From Vulcanimicrobiota bacterium (GTDB lineage Bacteria; Vulcanimicrobiota; Vulcanimicrobiia; Vulcanimicrobiales; Vulcanimicrobiaceae), in NCBI GenBank assembly GCA_963820825.1, contig CAWGBN010000006.1, forward strand, positions 608,001 through 672,000: a stretch of DNA of 64,000 bases, written 5' to 3'. The translations under genes and the position numbers were made by a program. The notes under the pieces are model-generated. The model saw only the letters and a list, made by a program, of their open reading frames with translations, was not told where the DNA came from and ran no database searches. Positions 1 through 21,562 of this stretch are shown here, in pieces (positions within the stretch are counted from its first letter, which is position 1; every line of letters starts with the position of its first letter).

Positions 1-2825
1 CGGTTTGGGTCGGAACGGGTGAAACGAATCCGCGCAACGACGTGAGCTACGGAGACGGCGTCTACAAGAGCACCGACGGCGGCGACACTTGGGAGAACGT
101 CGGCCTCAAAGGGAGCCGGTACATCTCTCGAATTCTCGTCGACCCGCGCAACCATAACCACGTCGTCGTCGGCGCGCTCGGCGACGTCTTCGCCGACAGC
201 ACGGAACGCGGCGTCTACGTTACCGACGATGGCGGCAAGACCTGGAAGCAGACGCTCTCGGTTGGGCCGGAGAGCGGCGCCTCGGACCTGGCGATGAACG
301 CGCAGAACCCCAGCGTCATCTACGCCGGCATTTGGAAGTTCCAGCGCCGCCCGTGGACCTTCGTCAGCGGCGGCGATGAAGACGGTCTTTACCGCTCGAC
401 CGACGGCGGAGAGAGCTGGACGAAGCTGGAGGGTCACGGCCTGCCGGCGGCGCCGATGGGGCGTATCGGGCTTGCGGTCGCACCGAGTGACGGCAATCGC
501 GTCTACGCGTTGATCGAATCGAAGGAAGGCTTGCTCTGGCGTTCGGACGACGGCGGCGCGAACTGGTCGATGGTCAGCAAGGATACGCGGATCAACGCGC
601 GTCCGTTCTACTTCTCGCACGTCGAAGTCGATCCCAAAGACTCCAACAAGGTTTACGCGATCTCGTTCGAAGTGATGCTCAGTCACGACGGCGGTAAGAC
701 CTTCAAAGCGATCGCCGAGGACGTCCATTCGGATTTTCACTCGATCTGGATCGCATCGAACGACCCCGCTCGAATCATGCTTGGCGAGGACGGCGGTTAC
801 GTTCTGACGCTCGACGGCGGCGATAACTGGTTCTTCTCGGCAAACCTACCGATTGGGCAGATCTATCGCGTCGGACTTGGGAACGATAATCCGTACACCG
901 TCTGCGTCGGGTTGCAGGACAATAACGGCTGGTGCGGTCCCTCGAATTCCCTCGATCCTTCCGGAATTCAAAACAAGTATTGGATCGTAACGGTCGGCGG
1001 CGACGGCCAATGGGGAATTCCCGAACCGGACGATCCGAATTGGATTTGGTCGGATTCGCAGGACGGGTCGCTCATCGTCTCCAACCGCGTCACCAAAGAC
1101 GGCTGGTTTGCGGCACCCTACGTACAGACCTCAAAAGAATCGTGGCTGCCCGCCTCGAGCAAGTACCGCTTCAACTGGGAATCGCCGATCGCGTTCGCGC
1201 CGTGGCGCTCGACTGACGGCAAGGTCATCGGCTGGTATGGCGGCAACGTCGTCTTTCAGACGACCGACCGCGGCCGCTCCTGGACGCCGATCAGTCCCGA
1301 TCTGACGCGCAACGTCAAGGAACATCAGCAGACGGCCGGCGGTCCGATCACCAACGACGTTTCGGGTGCGGAGTACCACGACACGATCCTCGACATCGAG
1401 GGTTCGGCGCTTCGCAAGGGTGAGATCTGGGTCGGTACCGACGACGGCCTCGTCCAGCTCACCCGCGACGGCGGAAAGCATTGGACGAACGTAACGCCGC
1501 AGGGCGCTCCACAGTTCGGACGGTTCGCGACGGTCGCACCCTCGACGCTCGTCGCCGGAACCGCATACGCCACGTCAGACGCACACTATATGGGCGACAA
1601 CGCGCCGTACGTCTTCGTGACCCACGACTTCGGACGCACCTGGACGAAGATCGTCAACGCTCTTCCGGCAAACGAGTGGGCGCGCTCGATTCGTCCCGAC
1701 ATTCACAATCGCGAGCTCGTCTATCTCGGCACCGAAGAGGGTATCTGGATCTCCTTCGACGGCGGCACCACCTGGCAATCGTTCAAGAACGACCTGCCCT
1801 CGGTCTCGGTCCGCGACATTCGGATGCAGCCGCAGTACGACGATCTCGTCATCGCAACGCACGGCCGCTCGGCCTATATTATGGACGACATGTCTCCGGT
1901 CCAGCAGTTGGCGCAGGCCGTCGCGCGCGGGAGCTGGCTCTTTACGCCGCGCCAGGCGTACCAATGGTCGCTCCAAGAGAACGACGAGGGAACGTACACG
2001 AACTACGCCGCCGACAATCCGCCCAACGGCGTGACGATCACATTCTACCAAAACGCGAAGCAGAAGGACGCACCGGCGCTCGATATTCTCGACGCGCGCG
2101 GCCGCGTGATCCGCAGCGTTTCGGGAACGCATAAGGTCGGCGGTAAGGACCTTCCCTACATCTCCAACAAAGTCGGGCTGAACCGCTACACGTGGGACTT
2201 CAGCGTCAACGGTCCGGTGCGATGGAACGCCGGAAACGACTTCTCGAAGGGGCCCGAGAACGGCCCCGGCGTGGTGCCCGGCGATTACTCGGTGCGCATG
2301 ACGCTTGGCGGACACACCTACGTGCAGCACTTCAAAGTGCTGCCCGACCCGCGCTCGCACTTCACGCAGGCCGATTACCAGCGCATCTACGATAACGCGA
2401 TGCGCCAGATGGGTTACCTCTCGCAGGTCGATGCGATGCTCAACAGCCTCGACGATCTTCAAAAAGCGCTCGACACCGCGCTCGCATCGGCGAAACAGGC
2501 GAACAATGCGACGCTGACGAGCAAGCTCCAGGATGCTTCGACCGCGCGCCAGACGCTCTTCGATTCGCTTGCCGTGAACATTCGCGGCGAAGGAACCGAG
2601 GATGAAGGCCGGCTGCACGAGGATATGCTCGGCGCGTTCGGAACCGCGCAGGCGCCCGTCACGCCGGCGCTCACCGAATTCGTGACGCGCGTCCACGCCG
2701 AGTATCGCGACGGGATCGCTCGCTATAACGCGTTTGTGACCGGCGTGCTCCCGGGCGCGAACGCGGCCTTGCAGAAGGCTGGAATGAAGGCGCTTCCAAG
2801 CGTCAAAACCGTCAATGCGTTATGA
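1..2825 (+). CDS. VPS10/BNR-repeat (WD40/YVTN-like) glycosyl hydrolase family protein, 5'-truncated by the window edge
   Basis: The frame is open from base 3 (VWVGTGETNPRNDV...). It has many SxDGGxTW Asp-box repeats and a helical C-terminus. Confidence 0.85.
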   Translation, partial: VWVGTGETNPRNDVSYGDGVYKSTDGGDTWENVGLKGSRYISRILVDPRNHNHVVVGALGDVFADSTERGVYVTDDGGKTWKQTLSVGPESGASDLAMNAQNPSVIYAGIWKFQRRPWTFVSGGDEDGLYRSTDGGESWTKLEGHGLPAAPMGRIGLAVAPSDGNRVYALIESKEGLLWRSDDGGANWSMVSKDTRINARPFYFSHVEVDPKDSNKVYAISFEVMLSHDGGKTFKAIAEDVHSDFHSIWIASNDPARIMLGEDGGYVLTLDGGDNWFFSANLPIGQIYRVGLGNDNPYTVCVGLQDNNGWCGPSNSLDPSGIQNKYWIVTVGGDGQWGIPEPDDPNWIWSDSQDGSLIVSNRVTKDGWFAAPYVQTSKESWLPASSKYRFNWESPIAFAPWRSTDGKVIGWYGGNVVFQTTDRGRSWTPISPDLTRNVKEHQQTAGGPITNDVSGAEYHDTILDIEGSALRKGEIWVGTDDGLVQLTRDGGKHWTNVTPQGAPQFGRFATVAPSTLVAGTAYATSDAHYMGDNAPYVFVTHDFGRTWTKIVNALPANEWARSIRPDIHNRELVYLGTEEGIWISFDGGTTWQSFKNDLPSVSVRDIRMQPQYDDLVIATHGRSAYIMDDMSPVQQLAQAVARGSWLFTPRQAYQWSLQENDEGTYTNYAADNPPNGVTITFYQNAKQKDAPALDILDARGRVIRSVSGTHKVGGKDLPYISNKVGLNRYTWDFSVNGPVRWNAGNDFSKGPENGPGVVPGDYSVRMTLGGHTYVQHFKVLPDPRSHFTQADYQRIYDNAMRQMGYLSQVDAMLNSLDDLQKALDTALASAKQANNATLTSKLQDASTARQTLFDSLAVNIRGEGTEDEGRLHEDMLGAFGTAQAPVTPALTEFVTRVHAEYRDGIARYNAFVTGVLPGANAALQKAGMKALPSVKTVNAL

Positions 2826-5800
2826 TCTTCGCTTCGACGGTTCTGCTGGCGGCCGCGGCTTATGCTAACCTCTCATGGCGCTCGATCGGGCCGGCGGTCG
2901 CCGGCGGCCGCGTAGCGGCAGTTTCGGGAACGCCGCAGGACGATCAACTCTACTACCTCGGCACGGCGGGCGGAGGCGTCTGGCGATCGATCAACGGCGG
3001 CGCCACGTGGGAGCCGGTCTTCGAGAAACAATCGGTCGGCGCAATCGGCGCGGTTGCAATCGATCCGCGCGACGAGCGCGTCGTCTGGGCGGGAACCGGG
3101 GAAGCGAATCCGCGCAACGACGTCAGCTATGGAAACGGTCTCTATAAGACCAGCGACGGCGGCAAAGACTGGACGCGGGTCGGACTCGCCGGCGTCTGGA
3201 GCATCTCGCGCATCGCGATCGATCCGAACGACTCGCGTCACGTCGTCGTCGGCGCGTTCGGCGATCCGTTCAAAGATTCGGCCGATCGCGGCGTCTACGT
3301 AACCTTCGACGGCGGCCGGACGTGGAGTAAGTCACTCTACCTCGGCCCATCGAGCGGCGCGAGCGACCTCGCGATGAATCCGGCCGATCCCAACGTCGTC
3401 TACGCGGGCATGTGGCACTTTCGCCGCGTGCCATGGACCTTTACCAGCGGCGGCGCCGACGACGGCCTCTACAAATCGACCGATGGCGGCCGAACCTGGA
3501 AGCGGCTGACCGGAAACGGATTGCCGAGCGGTTACACCGGACGAATCGGATTGGCGATCGCGCCGAGCCGCCCCAATCGGGTCTTTGCCCTGATCGAGGC
3601 AAAGGGCGGCATTCTTTGGCGCTCCGACGACGCCGGCGCGCATTGGACGATGACCAGCAACGATACGCTGGTCGACCAGCGTCCGTTTTACTTTACTCAC
3701 ATCGCCGTCGACCCGAAGAATCCCAATAGAGTCTACGCCGTCTCGGAGATGCTCTCCGAGAGTAAAGACGGCGGCAAGAAGTTTACCGAGATCGCGAAGG
3801 GCGTTCACGTCGATTACCACGCGATTTGGATCGATCCCGCCAATCCCAAGCGCATCATCGTCGGTGAGGATGGCGGCTACGCGTTAACCAGCGATCTCGA
3901 GCACTGGTCGTTCTCTCGCAACCTGGCTATCGGACAGGTCTATCACGTCGGACTCTCCGACGAGAATCCATACCTCGTCTGCGCGCCGTTTCAAGATAAC
4001 GGCGGTTTCTGCGGACCCGAGAACTCGCTCGACGGCGAGGGGATTCTCGACCGTCACTGGACCGATGTGATCGGCGGCGACGGCATGTGGGCCGTCCCCG
4101 ACCCGATCGATCCGCGCTACGTCTGGTCTGATCTCGAAGACGGTGCGGTTACGATCTTCGACCGCAAGACCGAGGTCAGCCGGTTCATTCGCCCGTACGA
4201 TGCCTTCCCCGGAAGTTTTCTCGGCCCGTTCGATTTGAGCAGCGTGCCCTACCGCTTCAACTGGGATTCGCCGATCGCATTCGCTCCTTGGGAAGGACAC
4301 GTCGGGTGGTTTGGCGGGAACGTGCTCTTTCAAACGACCGATCGCGGCGAGACCTGGACGACGATCAGTCCCGATCTCACCCGAAACATCAAAGCGCACC
4401 AAGTTCCCTCGGGCGGTCCGCTCGCCAAAGACGTATCCGGAGCCGAGTACTCCGATACGCTCCTCTATATCGAAGGATCGGCGATCGATCGCGGTGAGAT
4501 CTGGGTCGGAACCGACGACGGTTACGTGCAGATGACGCGCGATGGCGGCGCACATTGGAGCAACGTGACGCCGCCCGGCACGCCCGAGTTCGCGCGCATC
4601 GAGACGACGGCGCCGTCGCCGCTCGTCGCCGGCACGGCCTACGCCATCGCCGACAACCACCGCATGGGCGATTACGCACCCTACGTTTTTGTGACGCACG
4701 ACTACGGTGCGACCTGGACGAAGATCGTCGAGGGGCTGCCGTCCGATCAATACGTGCGCACCGTTCGCCCCGACACGCGTAACCCGTACCTGCTCTATGC
4801 GGGGACCGAGAACGGCATGTGGGTCTCGTTCGACGCGGGCCGCCACTGGCAAGATTTTCGCATCAACCTGCCTGCCGTCTCCGTTCGCGACATTCGCATC
4901 CAGCCGCAGTTCGACGACCTGGTCATCGCGACGCACGGACGCGATGCGTGGATCCTCGACGATCTCGGCTCGATTCAGCAGCTCGGAAGCGCCGCGAGCG
5001 CCGGCAGCACGCTCTTTCCGCCGCGCGTCGCTTACGAGTATCACTATCACTCCAACGATCTCGGAATCTACACGCGCTTTGCCGGCGAGAATCCGCCGAA
5101 GGGCGCGATTCTCGATTTCTATCAGAGCGCGCCGCAGAAGAGCGCGCCGAGCTTAGAGGTTCTCGACGCTTCGGGCCGGGTGATTCGGACCGTCAAGGGC
5201 ACGCACAAAGTAAAGGGCAAAGAGGAACCGTACGTTCCGAATAAGGCGGGCATCAATCGCTACGTCTGGGATTTCACCGAGGATCCGCCGGCGAAATGGT
5301 TGGGTGCGGCCCGCGAGGAGTACCAAGGCCCGAAGACCGGACCGGCCGTCGTTCCCGGAACCTATACCGTACGGCTGGTGCTCGGCGGCCAATCGCTGCA
5401 ACAATCGGTCGTCGTCAAACCCGATCCGCGCGACGATTGGACGCCCGCGCAGTATCAAGCCGGCTTCGAGTACGCGCAGAAGTACTCGGCGATCTACGGC
5501 AAGATTGACGTAGCGCTCAACAACCTCGACTCGATCAAGAAGGGTCTGGAGAGCGCGTCGGGTGTGGCAAAGAGCGACCCGGCGCTCGCGCAGCAGATCG
5601 CCGACGCGCGGCAGCGCCGCGAGCCGGTCTTCTCCGCCTTTACCGCCGATTACAAGAACGACGAAGACTCGATTCAACGTGGAGGCTCGCTGCGCGAGTC
5701 CGTGCCGCGGACCGGCTTTGGCGGGCCGCAGCTTCCGCCGACTGCCGCCCAACTCGACTACGCGAAACGCTTCGACGCCGCGTACGCTGCCGCGATCGGC

Positions 5801-13655: not shown

Positions 13656-13972
13656 TTACTCCGCGGCCTCTCCAGAAATGACGGCGAGCTGAGTGATGTT
13701 CTTCGCGCGCCGGGCGTACTCTTCCGGTGAGAGATTTCCCAGCGAGCTGTGCGGGTGATTGGCGTTGTAATCGCGGCGCCACGCCGTGGCCTGCACGCGG
13801 GCATCCGCAAGCGATCGGAACCAATTCGGGTTGAGCAGTTCCTGTCGCACGCGGTTGTTGAACGATTCGCAAAAAGCGTTATCTGACGGGCGCCCGGGCC
13901 GCGAGAAGTCGAGCTTCACCCGATTCCAGTAGGCCCACTGATCCAGCTGCAAAGATACGAACTCTGGGCCGT
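13656..13972 (-). pseudogene. IS3 #2 OrfB C-terminal part
   Basis: GPEF...SRPGRPSDNAFCESFN...YNANHPHSSLG. Confidence 0.9.
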
Positions 13973-14050
13973 GATACATACAAGACGGGGCGCTGCCCCC
14001 ATGGCGAACGGAGGTGTATCTGACTCATCTCCGCTGGAGGCAACGACCCT

Positions 14051-15313
14051 ATGGCAAAGTTCCGTGCTGCTCCAACGACGCCCGCCTGGCTCGCAATCGA
14101 CGTCGCCAAAAACCGACACGTGGCGCTGCTGGAGGACGAGGCCGGCATTCGCCGGCGTTTGACAGTTCCAAACACGCAAGAAGGTTTCGACGAGTTGGCA
14201 GGGATTCTGGCGCCGCATCTTCCCTGCGAGGTCGCGCTGGAACCAACCGGAGACTATCACCGACCCCTGGCGAACTTCTTGCTCCGGCGAGGCCACCGCG
14301 TTCATTTCGTATCGTCGATCGCTACAAATCGGACGAGAGAAGCGCTGTTCAACTCGTGGGATAAAAACGATCCGAAGGATGCGCAGGTGATTCTGCATTT
14401 GCTCAAGAGCGGTACAACGCAGGTGTTCGCCGATCCACTGCAACGTGGCAACCAAGATCTTCAGGAACTGCTCGGTACCTATCGGCAGATCACCGACCGA
14501 AAGACGCGAGCCTACCATTCGCTGATGACGCACTATTTGCCGCTGTACTTCCCGGAAGCAGAGCCCTTCCTGAGCAATCCGCGCGGCGAGTGGTTCTTGG
14601 AGGTCATGCGCATAGCGCCATGCCCTTCCACGGTCCTTCAATATACCAAAAGGACATTCGTCAAAAGGTTTACTGCAGCGGGAGGGCATTTTACATCTCG
14701 GCAAAGTCTCGTCGCCAGCTACTACGAAATTGCCAAGGAAAGCGTGGGAATTCCAGTGGCGGCGGATTCGCAGGCCGCCCAGATGTTCCAACTCGCGATT
14801 GAGCAGTACATCGGCCTCATGAAGCTTCGACGGCAGCTTCAGGAGCTCATTGACGCACAACTCGAGAACAACATCGATTATCAGCGCCTGCGCTCTATCC
14901 CTGGAATCGGCCCTATTGTTGCTCTAACGGTTCTCGCTGAAGGCGGAGATTTACGCCGCTTCAGCCACCATCGCAAATTTCTTAACTACTGTGGCCTTTC
15001 TTTGTCGACGATGCAATCCGGAACGTCACGCGGCCGACCGCAGCTCTCCAAACGCGGCAATGCTCGACTGCGATGGGCCTTCTGGATGGCAGCCAATGCT
15101 GCCATCAATCAGCGCCGAAACTCGTTTCGGAAAAAGTACGACGACTACGTTCGTCGCGATCCACTGGATGCCGATCTCAAAAGAAGAGCGTATGTCGCCG
15201 TAGCAGCGAAGATTGCGCGCGTCGCTTACGGCTTGATCAAATCTGGAAAAGAGTACCGCCACTATTTCGAAGCGGCGGTGCACGACGGGAGAATCCCTTC
15301 GCTGGGCCGTTGA
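14051..15313 (+). CDS. IS110-family transposase/recombinase (DEDD RuvC + Tnp domain)
   Basis: LAIDVAK, ALEPTG and KNDPKDA (DEDD); IPGIG; QSG catalytic Ser; SKRGNARLR. GGAGG RBS upstream. Confidence 0.95.
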   Translation: MAKFRAAPTTPAWLAIDVAKNRHVALLEDEAGIRRRLTVPNTQEGFDELAGILAPHLPCEVALEPTGDYHRPLANFLLRRGHRVHFVSSIATNRTREALFNSWDKNDPKDAQVILHLLKSGTTQVFADPLQRGNQDLQELLGTYRQITDRKTRAYHSLMTHYLPLYFPEAEPFLSNPRGEWFLEVMRIAPCPSTVLQYTKRTFVKRFTAAGGHFTSRQSLVASYYEIAKESVGIPVAADSQAAQMFQLAIEQYIGLMKLRRQLQELIDAQLENNIDYQRLRSIPGIGPIVALTVLAEGGDLRRFSHHRKFLNYCGLSLSTMQSGTSRGRPQLSKRGNARLRWAFWMAANAAINQRRNSFRKKYDDYVRRDPLDADLKRRAYVAVAAKIARVAYGLIKSGKEYRHYFEAAVHDGRIPSLGR

Positions 15314-15500
15314 GGCGACTACGACCTCGTAGATAATGCTCGGATCTCCCGATCGGCAGCAAACTCCGTTTTGAGCTCGGTGAAGGCTCGTTTCCGAGAC
15401 CTTGTGTCATCATGGTTGGAGCTATTGCGTCGTCGAGGGGCATCTCGGCAAGGGTGTGCAAGCTCGGCTTTGCTGTCGACGGGCATCGTTATGCCTACTA
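15286..15500 (+). ncRNA. Candidate bridge/seek RNA of the IS110 element (3' non-coding end, overlapping the stop codon; 3' boundary uncertain)
   Basis: Stem 15286-96/15342-51 encloses guide CTGGGCCGT (15302-10), inner hairpin GAGG/CCTC and guide GATAATG (15332-38). The guides match both insertion targets. Confidence 0.75.
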
Positions 15501-15525
15501 GTGGGGTTGACTTTCGTACTTAGCT

Positions 15526-16078
15526 CGTTATCGCAGTGGATCCGTTGCGGTGATCCACGCTCGGCAACGAGGCGGCGAAGTACCTCGACGACGTCGGTCG
15601 ATTTGAACCCCGAGGCCACCTCGAGGGCAAGGCTCTCGCGAGTAAATGAATCGACTATGGTTAAAAGGCGAATCTTGGTGCCGTCAGCGAGCACGTCGTG
15701 CATGAAGTCCATGGCCCAGCTCTGATTTGGCGCGCTGGGTACGACCCGTTCTGTCCGCACGACTGCGGCGCGCCGGCGTTTGGGTGTTTTCGTACGGATT
15801 GCGAGGTTTTCTTCGCGATAGATCCGCCGCACGCGCTTGCGATTGACCTGCCAGCCTTCACGCCGCAACAGGATCGTGATCCGTTCGTAGCCGTAGCGAA
15901 TGCGCGTGTGAGCGATCTCCTTGATCCGAGCGCGCAGAATGGGATCGTCGCGCTTGACGGGGCAGTAGTGCACCATCTTGCGATTGATGTCGAGTACGAC
16001 ACACGCCCGCCGTTCGCTCAAGCGCCAGGCCTCGCGCACCTTTGGCAGCATGACTGTGCGGCGCACCTGCCTCACCAC
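15526..16078 (-). pseudogene. IS3 #2 OrfB N-terminal part
   Basis: RYGYERI, WAMDFMHD, IVDSFTRE; ends at IHCDN at the IS110 junction. Confidence 0.9.
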
Positions 16079-16338
16079 TTTTTTTTAACGACGTCCTGCA
16101 AGACCTGACGATCCAGCGTCAGATCTGCAACGAGTCGCTTAAGGCGCGCGTTTTCGTCACGTAGCTGACGCAACTCGCGGATCTCCGGCGTTCCCAAACT
16201 GCCAAAACGCTTGCGCCAGGCATAAAACGTTGCCTCGGAGATTCCCAACTTGCGGGTGATATCGGCGATCGGCGTGCCGGCTTCGGCTTGGCGCAGGGCT
16301 GCGGCGATCTGCTCGTCGGAGTAGCGGGACTTGCGCAC
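16072..16338 (-). CDS. IS3 transposase OrfA
   Basis: MRKSRYSDEQI...ENARLKRLVADL...KKKW. Confidence 0.92.
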   Translation of the reverse strand: MRKSRYSDEQIAAALRQAEAGTPIADITRKLGISEATFYAWRKRFGSLGTPEIRELRQLRDENARLKRLVADLTLDRQVLQDVVKKKW

Positions 16339-16414
16339 GGGCGAACCTCCTGTCGGTCGGTGTTCGCCGCCATTTTCTAGTTATCCGTGGCGTAAAATCT
16401 TGGGAGAAGACCCC

Positions 16415-16900
16415 GGTCCCTACGGCGTCCGTGTCATAGGTGCAGCTTGCAACAACTCCCTCTTTTTCAGTGGAGGCGCTGGCGGAGAATTTCTGACGCC
16501 GACGCAGCAGTACGGCATCTACGTCGAATCCGCCACGCAGGAAAACCTATTCATTCATAATTGCGATCTCACCGGCAATCTGAGCGCGGCGGTGTCGGCC
16601 GCAAGCCCTCCGACAAACCTGCAAATTACGGGGTGCGCTGGCTATAACGACCAAGGCGTCGTGGTCCGGAACGTTATCCCGCCGACGGCCACCACCTTTT
16701 TCAGCTACAGCTTTACCACACCGTATTACGGCCCCGTCGAGTTTTACGTCAGCGGGGTCTCGGGAGCAATCTCGCAAATCAGCATCGACGGGCACGCAAC
16801 GCCGCTGAAATCAGGGAGCTTCTTTCTCGCCCCTGGCGAGAACGCCGAGATAACGTGGTCGGGAGTGTCCTTCCCGATTTTCCTGATGATCGGGAAGTGA
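16415..16900 (+). pseudogene. 3' fragment of a beta-helix (pectin-lyase-like) protein, 5' end removed at the IS3 boundary
   Basis: Protein-like frame (QQYGIYV, IHNCDLTGN, ITGCAGYN) begins exactly at the IS end with no native start. Confidence 0.55.
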
Positions 16901-17143
16901 CTAGCGATCTCTAAACGGCAGAGCGTGCACTCTAAATGTGCTGAGGCGCCGGGCGAGTGGCAACTGCTGAGACCGACTGACGCGTAACCTCGGTCGCTGG
17001 TCAAAACCGGAACTGCGCGGGCTCTTCTGTAGTATCCCATGGGATTTGCCGCGGGAGGTCACCCTGAGCCTTTGGCAGCATCCACGATCCGCCGCGCTCG
17101 GCTACACCCTTCGCGATAGTTTTTAGGTCTTGGAGAAAATCGA

Positions 17144-17335
17144 ATGGCATCTGCAGCGCTCCGCCATCAGTCGCTAAGTATAAGCGCTGCCGCGACATTG
17201 CTCGCGGGGTGCAGTGGATCACAGTCGCCGATCGGCGCGGACGGTGCATCGGCCGCAAGAACGGCCTTCTTACTCGCCGTGGGGAAGGTCCTGGAGACCA
17301 TGCTCGACGAGTTGCGTACTATTACAACGATCTAA
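17144..17335 (+). pseudogene. Orphan lipoprotein leader (truncated secreted-protein gene)
   Basis: GGAG RBS, then ATLLAGCSGSQSPIG signal peptide and an early stop. Confidence 0.45.
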
Positions 17336-17348
17336 CCAGAGGTGCCCC

Positions 17349-17804
17349 TTGAACGAGCTGGGAGCGAACGAAGACCTACGCGAAGCGCGGCAAAGTTACT
17401 TCGAGCAATACGCGTTTCCGCTTTTTAGCCACATCGACTTTCGCGTGAGCAATGCGCAGGCCGTCCGGCCTTTTTACGACGCACTCATGGCGCTGTTTGG
17501 CACCGACCCCACGACCGTACGCGTTGCGCGCTACGGATATACTCGGCGCTACGGATCAGTCCGTGCTGATTTCTTCAACGTTTTCGAAGATCCACAGGCA
17601 CGCCCAACGCCAACGCGCATCGCTTTTGCGGCGCCGAGTAGAGCTTTCGTAGACGAGGTCGCGCGCGTCGTCCGCGAACACGATGCTAGGGATGTCGAAG
17701 GTCCCGCCTATTTCGAGCAGCACCACCCAACGTTCTACGCGGTCTTCTTCGAAGACCCGTTGGGCAACCGCTTCGAGGTTTGCCATCACCGGATGGATAG
17801 ATAG
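17349..17804 (+). CDS. VOC/glyoxalase family protein
   Basis: FSHIDFRV, RIAFAAPSRAFVD and FYAVFFEDPLGNRFEVC motifs. Confidence 0.85.
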   Translation: MNELGANEDLREARQSYFEQYAFPLFSHIDFRVSNAQAVRPFYDALMALFGTDPTTVRVARYGYTRRYGSVRADFFNVFEDPQARPTPTRIAFAAPSRAFVDEVARVVREHDARDVEGPAYFEQHHPTFYAVFFEDPLGNRFEVCHHRMDR

Positions 17805-17871
17805 GCAGCGACAGTATCGACGCCGACGAAGCTCGCAAAACCTCGCATATTGGCGGAAACGGCGTGATATC

Positions 17872-18282
17872 TCAACTCATTGGATTAGCATTCGGCGCCT
17901 TTGAACGTCGCAGATTCCATAACCCTTGCGCTGAGAGGATAGCGGAGAAGACCGAGGTCACGGCGAGCGCGAGGAGAGTCCAAACGAAGAAGAACGCTCC
18001 ACTGGACTCAGCGAGCGTGCCGGCCGGCAGTCCTCCTGCTCTGCTCACGTGAACAGTGAAAACTACCATGCCCGCGACCGATCCGAGGAGCATGATCGCG
18101 TGCCCCGATCGCCGCTCAGCGAGCACCAGCGCCCCGTATAGCCAGATGACGAGGACAGCGATCGCCACGACGTTTGAGGCCGGTGACCTATCGGTCCCAT
18201 AGACGATATCATCCGTCAAGTGAAGCGAGAGGAGGGTGATCGAGAGCAGAGACATGATGGTTAAGACATTGTTGCGCTTCAT
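17872..18282 (-). CDS. Small 4-TM membrane protein
   Basis: Four hydrophobic segments; HLTDD motif. Confidence 0.7.
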   Translation of the reverse strand: MKRNNVLTIMSLLSITLLSLHLTDDIVYGTDRSPASNVVAIAVLVIWLYGALVLAERRSGHAIMLLGSVAGMVVFTVHVSRAGGLPAGTLAESSGAFFFVWTLLALAVTSVFSAILSAQGLWNLRRSKAPNANPMS

Positions 18283-18537
18283 ATGGGATAAGTTTACTAC
18301 ATAACGGCCTTCAAACTTCCGGTCGGGGCCCACCGCGGTCTTTCGGGGACATTTTCGCCCGCCGTTGTCATAGATAACTACATTGGTTAGAAGTGAATAG
18401 TTGGCCGACCTTAAGCACTCTCGTTTGTCTTCGAGCGAAACAAGAGCGTCGAGCTCAGTGGCGTTGGGATAGGTTTCTCGGAGCGGAAACTGGAGGCCAG
18501 AATGCCGTGCGCTTGGCGCTTCTCGGCCATCGCGCCA

Positions 18538-19005
18538 TCAAAGATCCTGAGCCTGGACAAGATTACAGGAAAATGCAAGGGTTTTACTCTTGTTGTAGAC
18601 CGCCAAGGCGACTAAGCCGACGGTATCAGCATACGCCGTCACAGACGTGGTCCCAGTCCTGTCGTTCGTGTCGGCATATATCTGAACTGCGTAACGACCC
18701 GACGGTACCGTGATTGTTGAACTGCCGCTCCACGTCCGGACGTTAGTCGATCCGTCGGGTTGCGTCAGCCGTAACTCAAATGATCGCGATGGCCGGAAAG
18801 GAACGGCAATTGGCGTCGTCGGGAAGGAACGTAGTGAGCCATCGGAGTTGAACACACCTACGAACAAGATGTCATGTGCGCCATCGTACGCCTGTAAAGT
18901 GGTATCGGATAAAGTCGACGGGAAACCGTTATACGTCTCGGTAACCGTAAAGTAGGGGCCATCATCGCCATAGCGGTGAATTTGCATTGTATAGTGGCGC
19001 CCCGA
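18538..19005 (-). pseudogene. 3' part of an unknown gene fused to an IS3 orfA start
   Basis: The ORF begins with IS-derived MRKSRF and continues in unrelated beta-rich sequence. Confidence 0.45.
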
Positions 19006-19100
19006 TCTGAATCGGCTCTTTCGCATGTGAGTCTCCTAGCCGGGCTGTACGCCCGAGAACTCACAGTCTCCGTCTGTCCCGAATCCGCGCCTACCGGTCA
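19005..19100 (-). mobile_element. IS3-family left-end remnant (#4)
   Basis: TGAC end and ACTGTGAGTT..CTAGGAGACTCAC leader almost identical to IS3 #1 (11151-11187), then MRKSRF only. Confidence 0.75.
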
Positions 19101-19198
19101 GGACCCAGATCACTGGAAATCGCGGGGTTTGAGCCCCGGAATCTAGTCCAATGGGAATTGTGGGTTTCCGGCCAAGATGGCCTGCAAAGGAGACCCGC

Positions 19199-19492
19199 AT
19201 GCGCAAGCGACGCTACACCGAAGCGCAAATCGTCGCGATCCTTCAAGAGCTCGACGCCGGCCGATCCGCAGCTGAGCTCGCTCGCAAACACGGCGTTCAC
19301 GTCAACACGCTGCGACTGTGGCGAAGCAAATACGCCGGGCTCGACATCAGCGATCTCACCCGTCTGAAAGAGCTCGAATCCGAAAACTCGCAGATGGAGC
19401 GCATCATCGCGCGTCAAGCCCTCGAGATCCGCGCGATGTCCGAGGTGATTCGAAAAAACGGGTGGGGCCCTCAGCGCGCAAGGAAGCGGTGA
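19199..19492 (+). CDS. IS3 transposase OrfA
   Basis: MRKRRYTEAQI; homologous to 11188-11481. Confidence 0.9.
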   Translation: MRKRRYTEAQIVAILQELDAGRSAAELARKHGVHVNTLRLWRSKYAGLDISDLTRLKELESENSQMERIIARQALEIRAMSEVIRKNGWGPQRARKR

Positions 19493-20008
19493 GGGCGTTA
19501 GAGGCCGAGGGGATGAGCCAGCGGCAAGCGTGCCGCCTCGCGACCTGCCCCCGACCGACCGTACGATACAAACCACGCAAACGCCCCGGCGACGAGCACG
19601 TCCGCGATCGGTTGCGTTGCATTGCGCAAGAGCGGCCGAGATTCGGATGGCGCCGGCTTAAGATCCTGCTCAAGCGTGAAGGCCTCGTGATGAACCACAA
19701 ACGCCTGCGCCGCCTGTATTGCGATGAGCGATTGCAGGTGCGACCGCGCAAGAAGCGACGCGTGCGATTGGTGCGCGGCAACGTTTCACCGGCTCCGACA
19801 AAGCTCAATGAAGAATGGGGACTGGATTTCATGCACGAAATCCTCATGACCAAGCGCAAAGTGCGGTTGCTGACGATCGAGGACCGCTTCAGCCGCGAAG
19901 GTCTCGCGGTCGACCCAGACTTTTCGATCACCAGCCGCCGCGTAATTCGAACGCTCGATGACATTGCCGAGATCCGCGGTTATCCCACGCGCCTTCGCGT
20001 TGATAACG
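19489..20008 (+). pseudogene. IS3 #3 OrfB N-terminal part
   Basis: RFGWRRL, WGLDFMHE, IEDRFSRE; ends at RLRVDN. Confidence 0.9.
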
Positions 20009-21562
20009 AGCTAAGTACGAAAGTCAACCCCACTAGTAGGCATAACGATGCCCGTCGACAGCAAAGCCGAGCTTGCACACCCTTGCCGAGATGCCCCTCG
20101 ACGACGCAATAGCTCCAACCATGATGACACAAGGTCTCGGAAACGAGCCTTCACCGAGCTCAAAACGGAGTTTGCTGCCGATCGGGAGATCCGAGCATTA
20201 TCTACGAGGTCGTAGTCGCCTCAACGGCCCAGCGAAGGGATTCTCCCGTCGTGCACCGCCGCTTCGAAATAGTGGCGGTACTCTTTTCCAGATTTGATCA
20301 AGCCGTAAGCGACGCGCGCAATCTTCGCTGCTACGGCGACATACGCTCTTCTTTTGAGATCGGCATCCAGTGGATCGCGACGAACGTAGTCGTCGTACTT
20401 TTCCCGAAACGAGTTTCGGCGCTGATTGATGGCAGCATTGGCTGCATCCAGAAGGCCCATCGCAGTCGAGCATTGCCGCGTTTGGAGAGCTGCGGTCGGC
20501 CGCGTGACGTTCCGGATTGCATCGTCGACAAAGAAAGGCCACAGTAGTTAAGAAATTTGCGATGGTGGCTGAAGCGGCGTAAATCTCCGCCTTCAGCGAG
20601 AACCGTTAGAGCAACAATAGGGCCGATTCCAGGGATAGAGCGCAGGCGCTGATAATCGATGTTGTTCTCGAGTTGTGCGTCAATGAGCTCCTGAAGCTGC
20701 CGTCGAAGCTTCATGAGGCCGATGTACTGCTCAATCGCGAGTTGGAACATCTGGGCGGCCTGCGAATCCGCCGCCACTGGAATTCCCACGCTTTCCTTGG
20801 CAATTTCGTAGTAGCTGGCGACGAGACTTTGCCGAGATGTGAAGATGCCCTCCGCTGCAGTAAACCTTTTGACGAATGTCCTTTTGGTATATTGAAGGAC
20901 CGTGGAAGGGCATGGCGCTATGCGCATGACCTCCAAGAACCACTCGCCGCGCGGATTGCTCAGGAAGGGCTCTGCTTCCGGGAAGTACAGCGGCGATTTC
21001 TGAGTCATCAGCGAATGGTAGGCTCGCGTCTTTCGGTCGGTGATCTGCCGATAGGTACCCGGCACTTTGCTGAAGATCTTGGTTGCCACGTTGCAGTGGA
21101 TCGGCGAACGCCTGCGTTGTACCGCTCTTGAGCAAATGCAGAATCACCTGCGCATCCTTCGGATCGTTTTTATCCCACGAGTTGAACAGCGCTTCTCTCG
21201 TCCGATTTGTAGCGATCGACGATACGAAATGAACGCGGTGGCCTCGCCGGAGCAGAAGTTCGCCAGGGGTCGGTGATAGTCTCCGGTTGGTTCCAGCGCG
21301 ACCTCGCAGGGAAGATGCGGCGCCAGAATCCCTGCCAACTCGTCGAAACCTTCTTGCGTGTTTGGAACTGTCAAACGCCGGCAACCCAGGCCTCGTCCTC
21401 CAGCAGCGCCACGTGTCGGTTTTTGGCGACGTCGATTGCGAGCCAGGCGGGCGTCGTTGGAGCAGCACGGAACTTTGCCATAGGGTCGTTGCCTCCAGCG
21501 GAGATGAGTCAGATACACCTCCGTTCGCCATGGGGGCAGCGCCCCGTCTTGTATGTATCACG
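20006..21562 (-). mobile_element. IS110-family element, copy B (transposase frameshifted)
   Basis: Near-identical to copy A, bounded by ACG cores (20006-08, 21560-62). Several indels break the ORF; the 3' non-coding end is unchanged. Confidence 0.95.

Follow-up and report, generated by a model that had tools for sequence, protein, structure and literature searches.

A readable target-binding loop in a predicted bridge RNA 3′ of an IS110-family transposase gene

Does a short segment at the end of an IS110-family transposase gene read the site where the element inserts, and does it read that site as a protein motif spelled in alternative codons? The question is raised by a stretch of 64,000 nucleotides from a Vulcanimicrobiota bacterium (contig CAWGBN010000006.1, positions 608,001 to 672,000), which in its full length is called the window here and whose numbering is used throughout. 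A preliminary description, made from the letters of the window, had assigned positions 15286-15351 to the target-binding loop (TBL) of a bridge RNA and proposed that its guide is tuned to synonymous variants of the target. We put the probability at about 0.9 that 15286-15351 is the TBL of an IS110-family bridge (seek) RNA, acting within the mechanism described below. The sequence itself, the covariation of the stems, the complementarity of the guides to target and donor, the empty sites and the class of target in relatives are direct observations. The element and its loop consist of the following parts.

13973..15528, + strand: IS110-family element, copy A, with ends set by four genomic copies; C8 holds an empty site.
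14051..15313, + strand: transposase/recombinase gene (tnp), 420 amino acids (aa), with DEDD_Tnp_IS110 and Transposase_20 domains (Pfam, NCBIfam).
15255..15279, + strand: 5′ hairpin before the TBL (ACCGCC...GGCGGT), an inverted repeat supported by homolog alignment.
15286..15296, + strand: 5′ strand of the TBL closing stem, CGGGAG(A)AUCC (helix 1).
15302..15310, + strand: left target guide CUGGGCCGU (DNA CTGGGCCGT), pairing with the bottom strand (the target gene's sense strand).
15312..15328, + strand: inner hairpin of the TBL, GAGG-CG-loop-CG-A-CCUC (GAGG-N9-CCTC; helix 3).
15332..15338, + strand: right target guide GAUAAUG, pairing with CGTTATC or CGTTGTC on the top strand.
15342..15351, + strand: 3′ strand of the TBL closing stem, GGAUCUCCCG (DNA GGATCTCCCG; helix 1).

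The whole TBL (15286-15351) lies 3′ of the transposase gene, and the last 28 nt of the transposase open reading frame (ORF) overlap its 5′ stem and left guide. The left guide has the same sense as the top strand and is located 5′; the right guide is antisense and located 3′. Stem, guides and inner hairpin were all found, letter for letter, where the preliminary description had placed them. Its statement that the loop is identical in a second copy of the element (copy B, 20183-20248) also holds, since 444 nt of the 3′ part of that copy (20002-20445) are 100% complementary to 15089-15532.

Four copies of the element are present in the genome, two of them in the window and mutually inverted, and the sequence common to the four runs from GATACATAC... 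to ...TTAGCTCGT. The left flanks end in CTGGGCCGT for copy A (13964-13972) and a copy on contig 2, or in CCGGACCGT for copy B (21568-21560, minus strand) and a copy on contig 5. The right flanks start with TATC, which follows ...AGCTCGT in copies A and B, except that the flank of the contig 2 copy starts with TGTC. Around copy A, the interrupted site has these parts.

13964..13972, + strand: left target half plus shared CGT, CTGGGCCGT, antisense of AAC GGC CCA G in the orfB of an IS3-like element.
15529..15532, + strand: right half of the target, TATC; its antisense is GAT A, the codon for Asp followed by the first Asn base.
15533..16338, − strand: N-terminal portion of the IS3-like element that is interrupted (Pfam hits to HTH_Tnp_1, to HTH_21 and to rve positions 2-75 of 102).
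16072-16338, − strand: orfA of the interrupted element, after which orfB runs to the second catalytic Asp.

The left guide matched the left flank at 9/9 positions for copy A and the contig 2 copy, and at 7/9 positions plus two wobbles for copy B and the contig 5 copy. The right guide GAUAAUG paired with CGTTATC at 7/7 positions, with one U:G. The two differences in the copy B target became U:G and G:T pairs at the third bases of CCA/CCG (Pro) and GGC/GGT (Gly), codons that are antisense to the element. The pairings reported from the letters, including the perfect left match, the placement of both wobbles in the Pro and Gly codons and the single U:G on the right, were thus reproduced in full. 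In the 64-kb window, the 9-mer of the left guide occurred three times, at the left junction and in the two loops, against 0.73 expected, and 4 of 100 shuffles reached three.

Elsewhere in the genome, two of the host elements are also present uninterrupted and read ...CTGGGCCGTTATC... and ...CCGGACCGTTATC...; these same-genome empty sites confirmed the target CTGGGCCGT/TATC (the slash marks the junction) without target-site duplication. Comparison of occupied with empty sites indicates that insertion makes no duplication and that the site and the joined element ends, TTAGCT-CGT-GATACA, have C-G-T in common. Three kinds of host element were interrupted, all of them IS3-like with an HTH_Tnp_1 orfA and an HTH_21 plus rve orfB. 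Each insertion is antisense to the gene and splits GAT/GAC-AAC-GGN-CCN-GAG (D-N-G-P-E) at position 73-75 of 102 of the rve profile. All four occupied sites (4/4) had a perfect or wobble-only left half, whereas among 214 unoccupied CCRTTRTC sites in the genome only 4 had such a 9-nt left half, a contrast that is confounded because insertions in host genes may be lost by selection. Three of those four unoccupied sites are empty insertion sequence (IS) copies, and the fourth, on contig 6, is a DNGPEN site within a gene that does not encode a transposase. This last site, at ~246335 and outside the window, reads ...STDNGPENDTWPDG... with CCGGACCGT/TGTC, is unoccupied and has wobble-only differences from both guides; it would be a candidate natural off-target. 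A pattern scan of 251 genomes of the same phylum for a background of occupied and empty sites gave matches at about the level of the reversed-pattern control.

The structure of the RNA was examined in relatives. The best 80 of 583 confirmed transposase relatives were fetched, with transposases 45-78% identical, from Eremiobacterota, Acidobacteriota, Nitrospirota, Alpha-, Beta- and Gammaproteobacteria, Planctomycetota, Bdellovibrionota and others. A GTAGATAATG-like anchor was present 3′ of the gene in 78 of the 80; L065 and L072 were without it, and L013 was cut at a contig end. The alignment comprised 66 RNAs, namely the window and 65 of the 69 different regions of 200 nt. Left out were L027, at a contig end and nearly a duplicate of L026, and L059, L068 and L082, which are diverged or interrupted past the target loop. 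The 5′ hairpin at 15255-15279 was seen in most homologs in this alignment.

RNAalifold on the 66 RNAs predicted two internal loops, the second 12 nt downstream of the first; a stem closes each of them, and a hairpin lies inside. Compensatory changes were found in 27/31 pairs, including 11/12 pairs of helix 1, the TBL closing stem (95.1% of cells paired), and 6/7 pairs of helix 3, the TBL inner hairpin; covariation was also seen in helices 4 and 5 of the donor loop. Overall, 94.9% of cells were paired, against 33.8-46.8% when the 3′ partners were slid by 1-3 columns, and the covariation score was 0.526, against at most 0.142, and was attained by none of 500 shuffles. For four of five measures 0/500 shuffles reached the observed value, and for the fifth 7/500 did; the structure tested was derived from the same alignment, which favours it somewhat. 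In many relatives (e.g. L017, L044 and L058), GGUGGAAGCCAC[C/U]UGG was observed ~35 nt past the donor loop (A1 columns ~250-270). It repeats both strands of the base of the TBL closing stem and changes with the stem; the window copy has no evident counterpart. Candidate roles are a small hairpin, a second partner for the stem or a protein site in the right end.

The second internal loop would read the element ends. Its parts, with the right end that it reads, are as follows.

15364..15421, + strand: donor-binding loop with closing stem CUCC/GGAG (helices 4 and 5).
15374..15381, + strand: left donor guide AGCUCGGU.
15383..15403, + strand: inner hairpin of the donor loop.
15409..15414, + strand: right donor guide AUCAUG, pairing with CGTGAT.
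15520..15528, + strand: right end TTAGCTCGT, the left donor half plus shared CGT.

In the window element, AGCUCGGU (AGCUC(G)GU) reads TTAGCTCGT with a one-base discontinuity and AUCAUG reads CGTGAT. In homologs, whose donor guides were taken from alignment columns, the AG-NNC of the left donor guide tracked the right end TAG-NNC-GT (CUC/CTC, UAC/TAC, GAC/GAC and CCN/CCC). Across homologs, the triplet preceding AU-G in the right donor guide was complementary to the first three bases of the left end (LE), as in ACU/AGT, GCU/AGC, AUC/GAT, ACC/GGT and AUU/AAT. As judged from these alignments, the covariation of guide and donor is the strongest evidence that the whole RNA is a bridge RNA. The stems covary, the guides match the two target halves around CGT and the second loop matches the element ends, which bears out the two-guide internal loop architecture first proposed for the segment. 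A different arrangement was seen in L033, 170-260 nt past the anchor, where the right end ...GGTAGTACGT is followed by TGTACCTTCAAAA, which resembles the left end of the same family and not a target; it may represent a tandem or donor-half insertion.

These data bear on the proposal that the region is only a stability or terminator structure in the 3′ untranslated region of the transposase mRNA and that the 9-mer matches by chance. Such a structure would fit the overlap with the end of the ORF and the fact that no separate promoter was found before the loop. It is contradicted by the donor covariation, the empty sites and the stem covariation; in addition, guides and donor ends covary across phyla, the 9-mer is limited in 64 kb to the junction and the two loops, and the structure is without a U-tract. 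We consider this proposal extremely improbable, and the bridge RNA reading is retained in what follows.

Junctions in relatives were obtained from multi-copy comparisons in five other genomes and from motif-conditioned searches, the latter covering 82 copies (78 loci and the four copies of this genome). The copies missed by the motif search were mostly at contig ends or rearranged. The multi-copy comparison, which is unbiased, showed junctions of the same kind and, together with the empty sites of this genome, forms the unbiased support for the target. Among 50 distinct translations of right flanks, 40 matched Pfam rve, and in 37 of these the match ran to the last residue of the translation, at position 73 of the 102 in the profile. 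Eight of the 50 were without a hit and carried motifs of the type ...DSD/NGSEFIN, and one matched DUF5916, probably at a false junction. Another of the 50, L038 (~2718-3300), lies inside a Pyr_redox (pyridine nucleotide-disulphide oxidoreductase) gene at ...ALD/(N)GREL..., an insertion outside transposase genes at a look-alike motif. The target as a protein-coding motif, noted at first from two copies, was found as D-N-G-x-E-F of rve transposases across the relatives analysed.

The guides themselves varied little among the 66 RNAs. In the right guide, GAUAAUG, the U opposite the third base of the Asp codon was present in 63/66, the U opposite the third base of the Asn codon in 66/66 and the final G in 65/66. 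The last five bases of the left guide are G-C-C-G-U; position −5 was G in 66/66 RNAs and position −2 in 63/66. Position −6 is variable, and the four bases are equally represented at −8. At 57 distinct left junctions, positions −1, −3 and −4 were always matched by the guide. At −8 to −5, guide and target matched in 122/228 cases, against 108.7 under permutation of the targets, a value reached by 43 of 10000 permutations; at −12 to −9, no matching beyond chance was found (51/228 versus 48.6). This pattern by position suggests that the guide in relatives is ~8 nt long and that its distal part is read loosely. The window element is among those best matched to their targets.

The conservation of the guides raises the possibility that the loop is a protein-contact or structural element, that the protein picks the target and that the match between loop and target stems from common descent. 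In keeping with this, GUAGAUAAUG and GCCGU are near-invariant across elements whose transposases are only 45-78% identical, and the chance-level matching at −12 to −9 fits as well. However, the two strands of the loop match the target halves on opposite DNA strands, in the same geometry as in IS621 and ISEc21 (as described in PMC11208160 and PMC11187229), and the analogous positions of the donor loop covary with the element ends. Guide positions −8 and −6 also track the x codon above chance (21/57 versus 14.3 and 75/114 versus 68.4, respectively). A purely structural or protein-contact role is in our view quite improbable, though less so than an untranslated-region structure.

The junctions also showed an unexpected feature of the shared bases. 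All the right junctions that were examined retained ...CGT from the element, and loci for which no junction was called showed no CAT; junction detection itself required GT at the right junction. The left junction kept the A or G of the target at −2, with A (an AAT codon, giving G:T) in 26/57. In almost half of the insertions, the first shared base is therefore not the same in target and donor, which would not be expected for a strictly matched core. From these sequences, the first shared base would behave as flank rather than as exchanged core.

Several results weigh against the segment being the TBL of a bridge RNA. Folding of the single sequence was not significant (z −1.6 for 78 nt and −0.5 for 263 nt), and the full-length minimum free energy fold had no visible TBL. 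The support for the loop thus comes from comparison with homologs and not from single-sequence energy, so that the folding and covariation check called for at the outset came out divided: the stems covary across the 66 RNAs, and the single-sequence energies are unremarkable. An Rfam scan of 13800-15700 at E ≤ 1 matched no family, and no independent promoter or terminator for the RNA stands out: a single promoter-like match, inside the loop, compares with 0.7 expected and is no more than chance would give. Either the pairing of the left donor guide is interrupted by a 1-nt discontinuity, or it takes in one fewer core base. Only 12/57 distinct insertions are free of true mismatches over −8 to −1, and covariation of guide and target is detectable only at −8 to −6 and is modest. 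Because the guides are near-invariant, most of their agreement with the targets among the relatives could also stem from a shared conserved target and not from co-variation. The left flank encodes G-x-[EQ]-[FYLN] in 61/82 copies and the right flank ends in D in 60/82, frequencies that are biased, since the search presupposed the motif and a right end with GT. The probability of about 0.9 given above takes these points into account.

How the guides treat synonymous codons was considered next to these results. In this genome, one guide serves three different IS3-like elements with no true mismatch in any of them and with zero wobbles, one wobble (U:G at GAC) and two wobbles (U:G at CCG and G:T at GGT), respectively. 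Among insertions guided by GAUAAUG, 38/55 were at TGTC, with U:G at the GAC codon, and 17/55 at TATC. Both sets of sites show that wobble pairing is tolerated. Guide bases opposite degenerate codon positions were G or U in nearly all of the 66 RNAs and were fixed despite variation of the target. For the copy B pair alone, simple arithmetic gives a chance of ~1 in 9 that both synonymous alternatives are wobble-compatible.

Whether the guide was selected, or tuned, to read synonymous variants is a separate matter. The preliminary description had claimed such tuning, and a part of that claim stood: G and U do face the degenerate positions, and most right-hand pairings use U:G at the Asp codon. 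Other parts did not, as wobbles were not enriched over true mismatches at the third bases of the Gly and x codons, relatives with an identical left guide sit at true mismatches and a core U:G is also present in the donor loop. The opposing explanation accepts a true TBL and regards wobble compatibility as a by-product, with −8 to −5 read loosely and the core U a mechanistic feature of the whole clade. Where the guide carries G or U, mismatches that are wobbles numbered 7 versus 6.4 expected at −8, 9 versus 7.3 at −6 and 11 versus 11.0 at −5. At −5, the guide is always G, yet the targets have G in 26, A in 11, C in 9 and T in 11 cases, and the even spread of the guide base at −8 fits loose reading as well. 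A Granulicella element with the identical guide CUGGGCCGU has a true mismatch at −5, −6 or −8 in 4/5 distinct sites, and one of the two Nitrospirales sites also has a true mismatch. The right donor guide ends in AU opposite the invariant donor GT, creating a U:G where no codon degeneracy exists; the crossover-adjacent U:G is thus a property of both right guides rather than a codon-reading device. Half-match recombination and low stringency have also been reported for IS621 (bioRxiv 10.64898/2026.08.31.748434).

Some observations do not fit a by-product. The G at −5 is invariant (66/66) though the base opposite is four-fold degenerate, and the U opposite the third Asp base is kept in 63/66 though 40/58 sites carry GAC, which C would match perfectly. 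Apart from 3/66 at −2, A is absent at these degenerate positions, and all four insertions in this genome have zero true mismatches. Taking both sides together, we lean slightly towards the by-product explanation and give selection of the guide for synonymous variants somewhat less than an even chance. A more far-reaching proposal, in which an old clade of many phyla would have fixed its target loop on D-N-G-x-E-F of integrase-fold transposases, with G and U selected to read the peptide motif and not a single DNA spelling of it, and would act as an RNA-guided hyperparasite, appears to us unlikely. Literature searches on this clade or on wobble-coded guides yielded only the statement on ISEc21 cited below, and the word 'wobble' is absent from the main texts of PMC11187229, PMC11208160 and two preprints of 2026. 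The guide had also been expected to be reprogrammable; its near-invariance across relatives would lend no support to that expectation.

In the mechanism that we propose, a bridge RNA encoded 3′ of the transposase gene would consist of the 5′ hairpin, the target loop and the donor loop, in this order. The two target guides would overlap on the shared C-G-T, and AGCUCGGU and AUCAUG in the donor loop would read the joined ends TTAGCT-CGT-GATACA. A DEDD/Ser recombinase with the RNA bound to it would then exchange strands at or beside the shared bases, leaving no target duplication; both the binding and the strand-exchange chemistry are presumed here. The natural target is the antisense of GAY-AAY-GGN-CCN-G, the second catalytic Asp motif D-N-G-P/S/T-E-F of rve-type (IS3-like and related) transposases. 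Since these are codons of the transposase active site, the element lands in and breaks other insertion sequences. G and U at degenerate positions would let one guide accept several synonymous spellings. The RNA would be made, probably as the 3′ portion of a tnp transcript and possibly with a circle-junction promoter, which would drive tnp and, by read-through, the RNA.

The remaining features of the element and of its second copy are these.

15507..15512, + strand: −35-like hexamer TTGACT, 16 nt from the right end (a consensus match only).
20006..21559, − strand: copy B of the element, with its TBL at 20183-20248 and a broken tnp frame.

The element has an LE of 78 nt and a right end (RE) of ~215 nt after the tnp stop, and the RNA region is 15255-15430 within 13973-15528. 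The boundary of copy A is ambiguous by 3 nt, the CGT common with the target being assigned here to the right end. Pfam E-values for the two domains of the 420-aa transposase were 7.6e-21 (DEDD_Tnp_IS110, PF01548) and 8.8e-28 (Transposase_20, PF02371), and NCBIfam NF033542, 'IS110 family RNA-guided transposase', scored 221 bits against a cut-off of 140. When RE and LE are joined, a TACATA-like hexamer of the LE lies 18 nt downstream of TTGACT, a layout that was also found in about half of the relatives. Judged by sequence, the two hexamers would form a putative junction promoter; such a promoter is described for IS110-family circles, and the present layout fits that account (PMC11187229, section 12).

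Copies A and B differ by ~16 substitutions and ~6 single-base indels, which are clustered in 14144-15131; their last 400 nt are identical. The tnp frame of copy B meets its first stop at codon 36, and this copy is either decaying or a carrier of indel errors of the assembly. The contig 5 copy (232107-233666) has a 1-nt deletion equivalent to window position 15354, three bases past the target-loop stem, and one substitution at 14078; the rest is identical to copy A. The inverted copies A and B (13973-21559) flank ~4.5 kb (15529-20005), in which two different IS3-like elements are each represented by their N-terminal half, along with ORFs that gave no Pfam hit, such as 16331-16900. This segment could be inverted if the two copies recombined.

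The locus offers a natural bridge RNA that is fully readable, with target loop, donor loop, ends and empty sites, for an IS110 subgroup with a 3′ RNA. There is no Rfam model for this RNA; the 66-sequence alignment could serve as the seed for one. Targeting of the DDE active site, published for one E. coli element, appears here to be customary in a lineage that is spread widely over Eremiobacterota, Acidobacteriota, Nitrospirota, Proteobacteria and others, which bears on competition among insertion sequences within genomes. If the hyperparasite reading were true, many unrelated insertion sequences would be disabled at their active site. For engineering, the element provides an example from nature of insertion that is compatible with rU:dG and rG:dT pairs and with a difference between target and donor at the first shared base, and it suggests a testable route to guides of broadened or narrowed range.

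One of the closest known systems is the bridge RNA of IS621, an element of the IS110 group. The IS621 recombinase has ~326 aa, and IS621 targets REP-like sites rather than coding motifs. The left and right target guides (LTG, RTG) and left and right donor guides (LDG, RDG) are used here as defined for IS621, for which tolerance of rG:dT in natural targets is also described (PMC11208160, section 9). According to the same source, the IS621 bridge RNA and the RNA described here share the order of 5′ hairpin, target loop and donor loop, left guides of top-strand sense, antisense right guides and a core present in all four guides, and IS621 likewise tolerates a natural rG:dT pair at one target position (PMC11208160). 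In contrast, the IS621 RNA lies in the left end, upstream of tnp, with a circle-junction promoter, whereas the present RNA is 3′ of tnp; its core is CT with Watson-Crick pairing, whereas here C-G-T is shared and both right guides place U opposite G; and recombinases of its branch are given as 315-330 aa, compared with 420 aa here (PMC11208160).

The target class itself is not new, as codons of the second catalytic D of DDE transposases are already published as the target of ISEc21 (PMC11187229, section 12). The same kind of targeting was found here, with rve matches ending at 73-75 of 102 and flanks ...D/N-G-P-E-F. Both elements have the bottom-strand match 5′ and the top-strand match 3′ and make no target duplication (PMC11187229). 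Compared by its published description, ISEc21 differs in having an upstream non-coding region (NCR) and a 358-aa transposase, whereas the NCR is downstream and the transposase has 420 aa in the present element (PMC11187229). With the IS1111 group (ISEc11, ISPa11 and ISKpn4), the element shares a guide RNA in a long NCR downstream of tnp (PMC11187229). In that group, however, the top-strand match is 5′ of the bottom-strand match, the reverse of the order seen here (PMC11187229, sections 6 and 9), transposases have 330-350 aa rather than 420, and long subterminal inverted repeats of 7-17 bp are described (PMC11187229). No subterminal inverted repeats were evident by eye in the window element; a 7-bp CCTTGAC/GTCAAGG is present in some relatives, e.g. 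L019.

A 420-aa protein fits the IS110 subgroup of 395-455 aa (PMC11187229), and some members of the IS110 family are described as carrying a 3′ NCR (PMC11187229, section 6). Of the layout typical of the IS110 group, the element has the 5′ bottom-strand match and not the RNA upstream of tnp. It combines a recombinase with DEDD and transposase C-terminal domains, two conserved RNA loops, target guides, donor guides and duplication-free insertion, as in systems with bridge or seek RNAs. The element thus adds a new, widespread lineage to a system of known kind, whose target is also of a known kind.

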